A DNA stretch of 32,000 nucleotides from contig JAJRZD010000014.1 in the NCBI GenBank assembly GCA_024275415.1, positions 30,001 through 62,000 of the forward strand. Direction: 5' to 3'. The notes beneath the pieces are model-generated. The model saw nothing but the letters and a program-made list of their open reading frames with translations. It had not been told where the DNA came from and made no database searches. Numbering within the stretch: the stretch's first letter is position 1; every line of letters begins with the position of its first letter. The translations under genes and the position numbers were made by a program. This DNA comes from an archaeon. GTDB lineage: Archaea; Asgardarchaeota; Thorarchaeia; Thorarchaeales; Thorarchaeaceae. This document shows, piece after piece, positions 25,246-28,570 of this stretch.

Positions 25246-25629
25246 ATGTTTGATCCTGGGTTCGAAGAGCTACAGGGGAATATCCGAGAGATTATGGAAG
25301 AAGCTCTCGCGTTATCAACTGGTGTTCGCGCTTGGTTGTTATTATCGAAGGAAGGACTTCCTATCGCTTCTGCGGTTCCCCAAGGGCTGGAGGAAGCGGA
25401 GATTGCAGCCATGTCCGCTTCAATTCTGGGTGTTGCTGACCTGGCCGCTGAACGGTTGGAGCAAGGAACACTAGAGGAAATCCTGATCACTAATGAACAG
25501 GGTCTTATCATCATGAAAGGGGCCGGCGAGAAGGCAATTCTCGTCTTAGCAGCTCGAAAAGACATGAAAACAGGGTTGCTCGTCTATGCCGCAAAGACTG
25601 CTGTCGAGAAAATTGTCCCATTGCTTTGA
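25246..25629 (+). CDS. Roadblock/LC7 domain protein (MglB/LAMTOR-like)
   Basis: LLLSKEGLPIASA..QGLEEAEIAAMSASILGVADLAAERLEQGTLEEILIT.EQG.II...AGEKAILVLAA...GLL. Confidence 0.92.
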   Translation: MFDPGFEELQGNIREIMEEALALSTGVRAWLLLSKEGLPIASAVPQGLEEAEIAAMSASILGVADLAAERLEQGTLEEILITNEQGLIIMKGAGEKAILVLAARKDMKTGLLVYAAKTAVEKIVPLL

Positions 25630-25631
25630 TA

Positions 25632-27632
25632 TTAGAAGTATCCAGTTATCCAGTATATGCTTCTTCGCACCAATAACCAATCATCTTCTGCCCCATAATA
25701 ATTATTCAAGCCAAAATTATCCAGAAAGGAATTCGTTCCTGTGACAATCATCCTTGCCGAAGAGCGCCCTTCTGATGCAGCTAGAACCGGTTTTAATGCT
25801 GTATGAGATGCCCCATTCTTATCTATCCAGCTGAACACCTCATATGCAAGGACTGTTGCATTGCCGCTAACATTCAGCGACGCTCCATAATAATCGAACG
25901 ATTGGACACCTGATGTTATCTCGTGTTCACGGACATTAACAACTTGTACGGCATTTGGAAGTCCTTCGTGCATAACGACAGAGGTTGGAACCCTATCGAA
26001 GTTCAAACTGAAGTTAAAAGCAGAAAACAGACGATTAGCATTGGAAACATCGATGCTCCGGTTATCTCCGCCAGTGATAAGAAGATTGCCGCCTTTCTCC
26101 CAATACGTTCGGTATACCTCAATCTCTTCTTGTGAATATGGGATGGAGCCCGACTGGACTAACTTTCCTTCGCGTTCTACGAATTCCCACCTACTCGGAT
26201 TGAGTACGATTATTGCATCAAACTGCCTAAACCTATTCAAAGTGATTTCAGACCTGTCGCGTAGTTCCTCAACTGCAAACCCAATCTCTGCGAGTTTGGA
26301 GTAAAAGCTTCTAAACTGACCATAGACTGAATCAGTCCATGACGATGAATGTGTAAAATCAAAGCCCACTTTCTTCACATATGGTGTCGCATCAAAGGCG
26401 ATAGAAGTATCAATAGCTCGATACCTATCCGAAATCAGGAATATCCTTCCCCTAAGACTTGTCCATGGAATCATTGAGTTCACCCTGATTTTGGCGTCGA
26501 ATTGCCCACTTTGATTGACTTCGATGTGCGTAGGGGCATCAATCCAAGGGCTTGCAGTCCCAGTGGTTCTTACGACGAATGATGCGTTGGTACTTGAAAA
26601 AACATTGATTCGAATTGTATATGTGGTATTCAAAAACCACCTTTCAAATTCAAAGATGCCTTGGTTTGGAGAAATCCATGCTATGAGAGGCAATCCATCA
26701 ATTTTGTCCGCACTTTTAATGAATCCTTTTGCCAGATCGACATTGACCACACCAGCCCCTACCGCCCATGGTTCACTTCCCAAGAATCTTGCACTTGATA
26801 GCAGAACCGCCTTTATCATCCCAGGGGTCCAGCGCCATCCATTGTCCTGACAGAATCGGATCAATTCTACAACAGCTGATGTTACGATTGGAGTTGATGC
26901 ACTGGTTCCTACAAACATGATTGAGTTCTCATCGTAGTATCCAGTTGCAGAGATGTCGGGTTTCAGTGACCTATCAAATGAAGGTCCGTGCCCGGAATAG
27001 GAATATGCTTTCCCATCACCGTCAATTGCTCCAACTGCAATAACCTCTGGATATACAGCAGGAGACTGTACTGAACTTCCCGCGAGTCCCTCTTTCCCAT
27101 TGTTCCCTGCTGCTGCAACAATAACAACCCCTTGCTGAAATGCCCACCTGACAACTTCTTTCATCCCATCGTTGTTTCGAGGTGAGTTACCGATGGACAG
27201 GTTGATCACATCACTGTCCTGCTCTTCCACCGCCCACCGGATTGCAGCTATTATTGCCTGAGTGGTAGCTTTATCACGCGAGTCCACGACCTTCGCGTTG
27301 ATGATTCCTGCATTAGGCGACTCGTGGATAATGATTTGGGCTACATTGGTTCCATGTAATGAACCAAATGGCTCCGAGTCCGTGGTGGAGTTGTCAGTGG
27401 TCGCATAACCATAGGTTTCATTGATGAAACTTGCCTCTGCTATGATATAAGATGAAAGCCGTTCATCAGGAGTGATTCCAGAATCAATTACCGCCACCCT
27501 GACTGAGATATCCGGAGGACCAAACACCTTGGGCAAGATAAGGAATCCGAAAGTGAATGCTACGAAGATGATTGCGATGACCAAGAGGGCGGTTCCTCTT
27601 TTCGGGTCGTAGTCATCTATCTCATCATCCAT
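25632..27632 (-). CDS. Membrane-anchored S8 subtilase with MBTPS1/Site-1-protease-like C-terminal architecture
   Basis: TM at aa 15-33; triad D50 (VAVIDSG), H93 (HGTNVA), S244 (GTSAS), oxyanion N177 (AAGN); then a beta-rich domain and a GATase-like/DUF4350-type domain (FDFTH...QFRSFYSKLAEIGFAVEEL...GGNLLITG). Confidence 0.85.
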   Translation of the reverse strand: MDDEIDDYDPKRGTALLVIAIIFVAFTFGFLILPKVFGPPDISVRVAVIDSGITPDERLSSYIIAEASFINETYGYATTDNSTTDSEPFGSLHGTNVAQIIIHESPNAGIINAKVVDSRDKATTQAIIAAIRWAVEEQDSDVINLSIGNSPRNNDGMKEVVRWAFQQGVVIVAAAGNNGKEGLAGSSVQSPAVYPEVIAVGAIDGDGKAYSYSGHGPSFDRSLKPDISATGYYDENSIMFVGTSASTPIVTSAVVELIRFCQDNGWRWTPGMIKAVLLSSARFLGSEPWAVGAGVVNVDLAKGFIKSADKIDGLPLIAWISPNQGIFEFERWFLNTTYTIRINVFSSTNASFVVRTTGTASPWIDAPTHIEVNQSGQFDAKIRVNSMIPWTSLRGRIFLISDRYRAIDTSIAFDATPYVKKVGFDFTHSSSWTDSVYGQFRSFYSKLAEIGFAVEELRDRSEITLNRFRQFDAIIVLNPSRWEFVEREGKLVQSGSIPYSQEEIEVYRTYWEKGGNLLITGGDNRSIDVSNANRLFSAFNFSLNFDRVPTSVVMHEGLPNAVQVVNVREHEITSGVQSFDYYGASLNVSGNATVLAYEVFSWIDKNGASHTALKPVLAASEGRSSARMIVTGTNSFLDNFGLNNYYGAEDDWLLVRRSIYWITGYF

Positions 27633-27766
27633 CTCACAGCAATCCTTGTCTTTGTCTGCATGGACTATGGTGTTGTAAATAAAGAATAATGCGAAACAAG
27701 CAACTCCCTCACATGAATGTAAATCCTTATCTTCTCACCGGGCTCAAAACAGGTGGTGGACACAAC

Positions 27767-28570
27767 ATGGTGATGGCAGACCCTGACACCTTTGAGATGC
27801 AAGAGTACGAGGGTATCGGAATCTTTGTCCCAGGTCAGAACTATGAACGAGAACTTGATGGTAGGGGAATGTTCAAAATCCTGCTTCTGACATTGGCTTC
27901 TTTTGGCACTACCCTTGGGCTCGCTTTTTTGCTGTTGATTCCTTTAATGGTCGCCAATCTGATATACTTCGACATGTACGGGGTTGTTTCTTTTGGCCCT
28001 TGGGCATACGTCCTGTTGACAACCACTGAATTTGGTTTCATCATCCCTCCCATCTGGTATGTCCGCAAGAGAGGTTTCTCTCTAAGATCCGTTGGTATTT
28101 TGATGAATCAACCTCTCAAGGAGATTGTGCTCGGCCTCGTCTTTGGTGTGGCCATGATATCTGTCAACATAGCTATAACTTGGGTCATTGCCGAGTACTC
28201 GGGGATTGGACATGACAGCTCAGAATCCCCGTTTATCGCAAGCGATTGGGTCGAGGTCATTGGCTGGATCGTGGTGATGTTCGTAGCGGTAGGATTCAGC
28301 GAAGAATTGCTATTCCGAGGGTTCCTGCAAAAACGTATGGAGATTTATTTTAGGGCCAAGTCCGGACGCTACAAGCTCCTAGCTCTGGTCATCACATCTG
28401 CACTTTTCGCAGCAATGCACTTCGAATTGATTGGGCTACTAACCCGTTTCATACTCGGGCTGTTCTTAGGCTATCTCTGCCAGAAAAGGAAGTATTCTAT
28501 CTTGGGGCCTTCAATCGCACACGGGTTCAACAATTCCATGGTTATCATACTCGTCTTTCTAGGCTTCTAA
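27767..28570 (+). CDS. CPBP (Abi/Rce1-like) intramembrane glutamic endopeptidase
   Basis: SEELLFRG, LFAAMH, AHGFNN motifs; multiple TM segments. Start moved from 27689 to ATG 27767 after GGTGG. Confidence 0.9.
   Translation: MVMADPDTFEMQEYEGIGIFVPGQNYERELDGRGMFKILLLTLASFGTTLGLAFLLLIPLMVANLIYFDMYGVVSFGPWAYVLLTTTEFGFIIPPIWYVRKRGFSLRSVGILMNQPLKEIVLGLVFGVAMISVNIAITWVIAEYSGIGHDSSESPFIASDWVEVIGWIVVMFVAVGFSEELLFRGFLQKRMEIYFRAKSGRYKLLALVITSALFAAMHFELIGLLTRFILGLFLGYLCQKRKYSILGPSIAHGFNNSMVIILVFLGF

Follow-up and report, generated by a model that had tools for sequence, protein, structure and literature searches.

A membrane-anchored subtilase of Thorarchaeia with a predicted ectodomain core resembling that of eukaryotic site-1 protease

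The window analysed here is a 32,000-nucleotide stretch of an archaeal genome of the Thorarchaeia (NCBI GenBank assembly GCA_024275415.1, contig JAJRZD010000014.1, positions 30,001 to 62,000 of the forward strand), and it carries on its reverse strand, at positions 25632..27632, an intact open reading frame of 666 codons and a stop codon. No sequencing runs were found listed for the window. This gene, P0001, was taken from an open reading frame list with its translation, and it encodes a 666-residue membrane-anchored protease in which a subtilase (S8) catalytic domain is followed by a beta-sandwich and a GIFT domain. The parts of the protein, all on the (-) strand, are an 11-residue acidic tail (27600-27632), a single N-terminal transmembrane helix or signal anchor (residues 12-34; 27531..27599), the catalytic domain (residues 44-305; 26718..27503), the beta-sandwich (residues 306-418; 26379..26717), and a GATase1-like alpha-beta domain of the GIFT type (residues 419-666; 25635..26378). 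In eukaryotes, site-1 protease (S1P) acts on SREBP, ATF6 and related factors, starting their regulated intramembrane proteolysis. An earlier interpretation made from the DNA alone (the sequence-only reading) had proposed P0001 as a candidate archaeal relative of this enzyme. The analysis described below points to an S1P-like core in the predicted structure of P0001, and it finds a less specific relationship by sequence.

The catalytic domain is the best-defined part of the protein. Pfam Peptidase_S8 (PF00082) covers residues 44-283 with an E-value of 2.8e-40 and 138.9 bits against a cut-off of 21.8, and the catalytic residues D50, H93 and S244, together with the oxyanion residue N177, do not vary among the 44 family members aligned. 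P0001 therefore belongs to peptidase family S8, with the Asp-His-Ser triad in subtilisin order and the oxyanion Asn, and the intact triad claimed by the sequence-only reading is confirmed. In a search of Protein Data Bank (PDB) sequences, the best solved relatives were classical subtilisins; the S8 domain of the model superposes on subtilisin BPN' with a root-mean-square deviation (rmsd) of 1.4 Å at 34% identity. The C-terminal 362 residues alone gave no PDB match by sequence, and Pfam returned weak matches to DUF4350 and IFT52_GIFT for this part, both below their cut-offs.

The remainder of the architecture was resolved by structure prediction. A full-length AlphaFold2 model built from the family alignment (mean predicted local distance difference test score, pLDDT, 90.7; predicted template modelling score, pTM, 0.88) has the transmembrane helix at residues 12-31 and the S8 domain at 44-305; residues 306-418, approximately, then form a beta-sandwich, and residues 419-666 an alpha/beta domain. 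Residues 305-666 were also modelled separately, with a pLDDT of 93.4, and the beta-sandwich is all-beta in both models. The beta-rich segment and the GATase-like domain seen in the sequence-only reading are thus recovered, the latter as a GIFT domain. Human S1P is arranged in the same order: after Peptidase S8 come a P-like beta-sandwich at 479-616 and, at 617-998, a GIFT subdomain (PMC11231238), as that reading had also claimed.

Comparison of the full model with the PDB by Foldseek placed human S1P first (9csd_A, E 4.8e-39; 8uw8_A, 2.8e-37), with TM-scores of 0.69-0.71 across about 760 columns, and the next match (1e-23) covered the S8 portion only. A VIA alignment with S1P gave a Z of 42.8 and an rmsd of 3.1 Å over 557 residues at 21% identity, laying model residues 42-666 on chain residues 210-874. 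Furthermore, the model of residues 305-666 also retrieved S1P as its top Foldseek match (3.5e-16; TM-score 0.63-0.65), followed by IFT52 (1e-11) and OST48/Wbp1, so that the C-terminal domain does align with MBTPS1 (S1P). When the C-terminal half was searched against representatives by VIA, the GIFT domain scored Z 23.6 with IFT52 (rmsd 2.8 Å, 210 residues), 20.4 with OST48 and 20.1 with S1P, and S1P was the sole chain aligned over the beta-sandwich and GIFT domain together (309 residues, chain 478-874). In the ESM Atlas, eukaryotic MBTPS1 clusters were the best shape matches both to the full model (TM-score 0.75, 563 aligned residues; plant clusters 0.64) and to the C-terminal half (0.74), bacterial S8 clusters scored at most 0.49, and a language-model feature search ranked MBTPS1 clusters first (0.93). 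In the model, the S8, beta-sandwich and GIFT domains are packed as one S1P-like ectodomain core, and the predicted beta-sandwich is equivalent to the P-like subdomain of S1P on structural grounds, the profile searches having given no signal for this part by sequence. The three P0001 strings in which the sequence-only reading had seen parallels to human S1P lie at residues 434-457, 271-284 and 292-297, within the part that the superposition matches to S1P at the level of regions.

The N-terminal anchor noted earlier stood up to closer inspection. Hydropathy peaks once, at residues 15-33, and indicates no second hydrophobic helix in P0001, including at the C-terminus, where the GIFT domain is the last element. 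Conservation at the N-terminus sets in at residue ~8, and the S8 domain begins about 10 residues past the sole transmembrane helix; since the catalytic domain starts so soon after the helix, there is no propeptide. Mean identity to relatives is 53% in the transmembrane helix, 54% in the catalytic domain, 38% in the beta-sandwich and 40% in the GIFT domain. The helix thus matches the catalytic domain in conservation and exceeds the other two parts. Within the helix R12, G13 and P34 are nearly invariant and L17 is invariant, a degree of conservation unusual for a passive anchor. The S8-beta-GIFT module is placed outside the cytoplasm because its longer, type I relatives carry a signal peptide, a C-terminal transmembrane helix and a basic tail. 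P0001 is probably N-glycosylated, judging by its N-x-S/T sequons: the at least nine proposed earlier became 10 on counting, compared with 5.6 +/- 2.1 in shuffled sequences (p about 0.04), and nine of these are retained in at least 30 of the 44 relatives.

The S8-beta-GIFT proteases, of which P0001 is one, form an archaeal superfamily found mostly in Asgard lineages. A word-indexed search recovered about 85 clusters of 657-677 amino acids at 37-61% identity, nearly all labelled Thorarchaeota, in agreement with the Asgard host proposed from the sequence, and beyond this family the scores fell from E 1e-114 to 1e-16, where generic S8 proteins begin. Among 400 genomes of the phylum, 189 (from 43 of 85 genera) have a match to the beta+GIFT region; for the host's own family the figure is 77 of 85 genomes, mostly with two copies each. 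Further forms were retrieved by an exhaustive phmmer search with the C-terminal half of P0001, which brought up proteins of prokaryotic type only. These include type I relatives of ~1040-1250 amino acids in Njordarchaeia and other lineages (signal peptide, Tk-SP-type propeptide, S8, beta, GIFT, C-terminal transmembrane helix and basic tail), short N-anchored S8-GIFT forms in Heimdall and other lineages, and some relatives fused to a polytopic membrane domain. The D/H/N/S residues are retained in all of them. One type I-like protein sits on an archaeal contig without Asgard markers.

No bacterial S8-GIFT member was found: a pattern scan of 185,579 species genomes, with a limited sensitivity owing to its use of one narrow pattern, yielded 38 confirmed relatives, all archaeal, and the searches gave no widespread bacterial S8-DUF4350 clade in which P0001 would nest. 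An apparently bacterial relative labelled Zixibacteria (L025, DATKYH010000059.1, with a 735-residue S8-GIFT gene) was rejected, because the gene has ESCRT-II and Vps4 genes beside it and the contig is thus most likely Asgard DNA. In a tree of S8 domains, nearly all S8-GIFT proteins split from the nearest generic S8 proteins (99/91), with two S8-GIFT rows falling among the generic ones; type I forms branch first, and the Thorarchaeal groups and polytopic forms are nested (97/93), given a root assumed on the generic side and a tree that included no eukaryotes. The N-anchored Thorarchaeal form looks derived, because relatives of ~1040 amino acids with type I topology branch first in this tree.

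Two other members of the superfamily, or proteins resembling it, occur in the same genome. A second paralog of ~665 amino acids on contig C8 (L004 1351-3405 (+)) has 39% identity to P0001 and intact D/H/N/S residues; it is flanked by a P-type ATPase and an MFS transporter, and the ATPase neighbour is kept in another genome (L029). Contig C1 (L007 286-3231 (+)) encodes a 981-residue S8-like protein whose C-terminal part is of the GIFT type and is followed by a transmembrane helix and a basic tail. In this protein Ser is missing from the aligned catalytic position; it groups with generic S8 proteins in the tree and may be a pseudo-protease. In sequence, the archaeal GIFT domains recovered here resemble IFT52 more closely than they do S1P or OST48, which suggests that Asgard archaea hold a radiation of GIFT domains. 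Stand-alone IFT52-type GIFT proteins of ~310 amino acids form a 106-member cluster of Promethearchaeota in the ESM Atlas, and a Pfam match to TRAP_beta (translocon-associated protein beta) was seen on a Heimdallarchaeota contig (L024 258-830 (-)), about 1.7 kb from an S8-GIFT gene.

The explanation we hold to be probable on balance is that P0001 is a membrane-proximal selective processing or shedding protease with an S1P-like core, and a derived, N-anchored member of this archaeal superfamily. P0001 would be an active type II membrane protein with a short acidic cytoplasmic tail and one conserved transmembrane helix. About 10 residues past the helix, an extracytoplasmic, N-glycosylated subtilase would be clasped by the beta-sandwich and GIFT domain as in S1P. 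The early-branching members of the superfamily have the complete S1P layout, with signal peptide, propeptide, C-terminal transmembrane helix and basic tail. The Thorarchaeal form, of which each genome has two paralogs, would be a compact derivative that is N-anchored and has no propeptide. The enzyme would act on membrane or surface proteins as a selective processor or shedder, and not as a bulk digestive enzyme, because its catalytic domain lies near the membrane and is framed by accessory domains as in S1P.

Several observations weigh against this reading. The Thorarchaeal profile scored BPN' at 133 bits and S1P at 97 bits, in the S8 part only, and the S1P score falls inside the range of generic S8 proteins (65-111). 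Profile E-values for catalytic domains were 1e-63 for Tk-SP, the subtilase of Thermococcus kodakarensis, and 7e-38 to 5e-57 for BPN'. The MBTPS1-specific Pfam models MBTPS1_3rd (PF23094) and MBTPS1_4th (PF23090) had no match in P0001 at E<=1, and no protein in the 400 Asgard genomes exceeded the cut-off for MBTPS1_3rd; the two sub-threshold PF23094 matches in these genomes were discarded as chance level, a Bacillus subtilis control having matched as well. MBTPS1_4th matched 7 of the 44 relatives weakly in their GIFT domain (best E 0.0055, below cut-off). With the beta+GIFT region alone, a Thorarchaeal profile found IFT52 among PDB sequences (E 1.9e-4) and not S1P, even at E 10, and a broad profile of all archaeal forms placed the GIFT domain nearer IFT52 (E 1.5e-12) than S1P (E 1.1e-3). 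By sequence, a signal specific to S1P is found in no domain. In addition, the charges flanking the transmembrane helix do not by themselves fix the orientation of P0001; secreted subtilases do not usually lack a propeptide, which makes the folding and activation of P0001 puzzling; and the preference for a processing over a digestive role is inferred from the architecture.

The full-length broad profile gave a more favourable result. It aligns S1P continuously over S8, beta and GIFT (profile positions 2-582, chain 207-853, 178 bits), and every other PDB match ends where S8 ends. GIFT-domain homology is thus supported by sequence profiles at the superfamily level, and the C-terminal domain of P0001 has both the GIFT fold and a profile-level similarity to this superfamily. 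The kinship with S1P suggested by the sequence-only reading therefore stands for the domain order and the best full-length structural match, and not for a specific relationship with the eukaryotic enzyme by sequence, in which the S8 domain is nearer BPN' and Tk-SP, MBTPS1_3rd is unmatched and the GIFT domain is nearer IFT52.

An alternative is that the likeness to S1P is convergent or only modular, such that an archaeal Tk-SP-type subtilase (S8 plus beta-jelly-roll) gained a GIFT domain independently of the eukaryotic lineage. The generic score of S1P (97 bits) and the closeness of the GIFT domain to IFT52 speak for it, as do the S8 domains of the long archaeal forms, which best match Thermococcus Tk-SP with its N-propeptide included (E 1e-40 to 1e-45), and the pairing of beta+GIFT modules in bacteria with other partners, such as M28 peptidases. 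Such an independent assembly would, however, have to account for the same three-domain order and rigid-body packing over more than 550 residues, for an S8+beta+GIFT combination found only in archaea and eukaryotes, and for the signal peptide, propeptide, C-terminal transmembrane helix and basic tail that type I archaeal forms share with S1P; moreover, S1P may simply evolve fast. We regard convergence as a serious possibility, though not a likely one. That the Asgard S8-beta-GIFT proteases are instead the direct archaeal ancestors of eukaryotic S1P, with the Thorarchaeal N-anchored form as a derived membrane-signalling variant, is in our judgement rather unlikely. If it were true, the protease would join the eukaryotic signature proteins of secretion and membrane signalling, and the complete body plan of S1P, its propeptide, C-terminal anchor and basic tail included, would predate eukaryogenesis.

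A role as a nutritional cell-surface protease, cutting environmental proteins into peptides for uptake with the GIFT and beta domains serving only stability or surface attachment, would fit the extracellular anchored topology and an S8 domain that is most like broad-specificity subtilisins in identity and rmsd. Thorarchaeota are also inferred to degrade peptides and proteins. Digestive proteases, however, usually vary in copy number and carry propeptides, whereas P0001 has one-to-one orthologues at a fixed locus in nearly every genome of the family, a conserved transmembrane helix, and accessory domains that pack round the catalytic domain as in a selective convertase. A digestive function is decidedly unlikely on this evidence.

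The genes on either side of P0001 are conserved with it. A Roadblock/LC7 gene (25246..25629 (+); Pfam E 6e-14) meets the protease gene tail-to-tail with 2 bp between them, and a gene for an Rce1-like CPBP intramembrane protease (27689..28570 (+); Pfam E 3e-18) is divergent from it. The true start of the latter is probably at 27767, since its orthologues are ~267 amino acids long, and the CPBP motifs EExxxR, FxxxH and HxxxN are readable in its translation. Synteny is stable around the one-to-one orthologues of P0001, which 77 of the 85 family genomes carry. The Roadblock/LC7 gene is found at this place in each of the 16 loci of the orthologue group, with an identity of 57-95% compared with 37-60% for the protease. 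In all 13 group loci with sufficient sequence reach, the CPBP gene either adjoins the protease gene divergently or lies no more than ~4 kb away. Both neighbours persist at 37% protease identity, where other neighbours differ. Both are missing from the second paralog group and from the relatives in Njord, Heimdall and other lineages. The idea that both Thorarchaeal paralog groups have these neighbours was rejected, as P0125 and P0086 proved to be divergent members of the P0001 group; the true second group adjoins a P-type ATPase. In the most divergent orthologous loci (L022 2846-4957, L028 2874-4973 (+)), a ~700-residue membrane protein with a weak PMT_2 (glycosyltransferase) match lies directly upstream of the protease on the same strand.

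This conserved neighbourhood is suggestive only of a functional link. P0001 could in principle be a true site-1 protease, making the first extracytoplasmic cut in a membrane-bound regulator that an intramembrane protease (the CPBP neighbour or S2P) would then release, and the Roadblock/LC7 protein could act on the cytoplasmic side. The S1P-like ectodomain, the neighbours retained throughout the orthologue group, the readable CPBP motifs and the conservation of the helix, suggestive of a membrane partner, are in keeping with such a cascade, yet Thorarchaeal synteny is generally stable, making adjacency weak evidence, the other groups do without both neighbours, no substrate or regulator gene was identified, and CPBP proteases are not known to act as site-2 enzymes, so that we consider it improbable. 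We know of no SPRING-like partner and of no SREBP/ATF6-type substrates in archaea, and a role for P0001 like that in SREBP/ATF6 processing would be pure inference.

For the selective processing or shedding protease favoured here, the wider interest lies in its distribution. The S1P-shaped S8-beta-GIFT core occurs widely among Asgard archaea, these searches turned up no bacterial example, and some lineages have the full S1P membrane topology. It hints at an archaeal root for S1P, the origin of the enzyme being open to phylogeny and biochemistry, and adds to the eukaryote-like membrane and secretory components of Asgard archaea. What P0001 adds is a derived variant, N-anchored and without a propeptide, in which the transmembrane helix is unusually conserved, and the conservation of its two neighbours. 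In the open-access literature, no paper with both 'Asgard' and 'site-1 protease' was found.

Among known systems, IFT52 (PDB 5FMS, 5FMR) and OST48/Wbp1 are closest to the C-terminal domain of P0001 taken alone. Unlike P0001, these are non-proteases, and their GIFT domain forms the N-terminal module of ciliary-transport or oligosaccharyltransferase subunits. The closest catalytic domains by sequence are those of Tk-SP (PDB 3AFG, 9UES) and subtilisins BPN', E and Carlsberg. Tk-SP has a beta-jelly-roll after S8, and its N-propeptide is common to the long archaeal relatives; unlike P0001, Tk-SP and the classical subtilisins are secreted and propeptide-dependent, with neither GIFT domain nor membrane anchor. 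S1P (MBTPS1/SKI-1; PDB 8UW8, 8UWC, 9CSD; PMC11231238) differs from P0001 in its signal peptide and inhibitory A/B prodomains removed by autoprocessing, which P0001 lacks, in its C-terminal anchor with a short basic cytosolic tail, where P0001 is anchored N-terminally, and in the size of its GIFT domain (about 380 residues against about 250); identity over the structural alignment is the 21% given above, and the MBTPS1-specific Pfam models go unmatched in P0001. The two nevertheless share a membrane-anchored, extracytoplasmic S8 domain, with a P-like beta-sandwich and then a GIFT domain after it, and probably N-glycans, and the type I archaeal relatives of P0001 have in common with S1P the signal peptide, propeptide, C-terminal transmembrane helix and basic tail as well.

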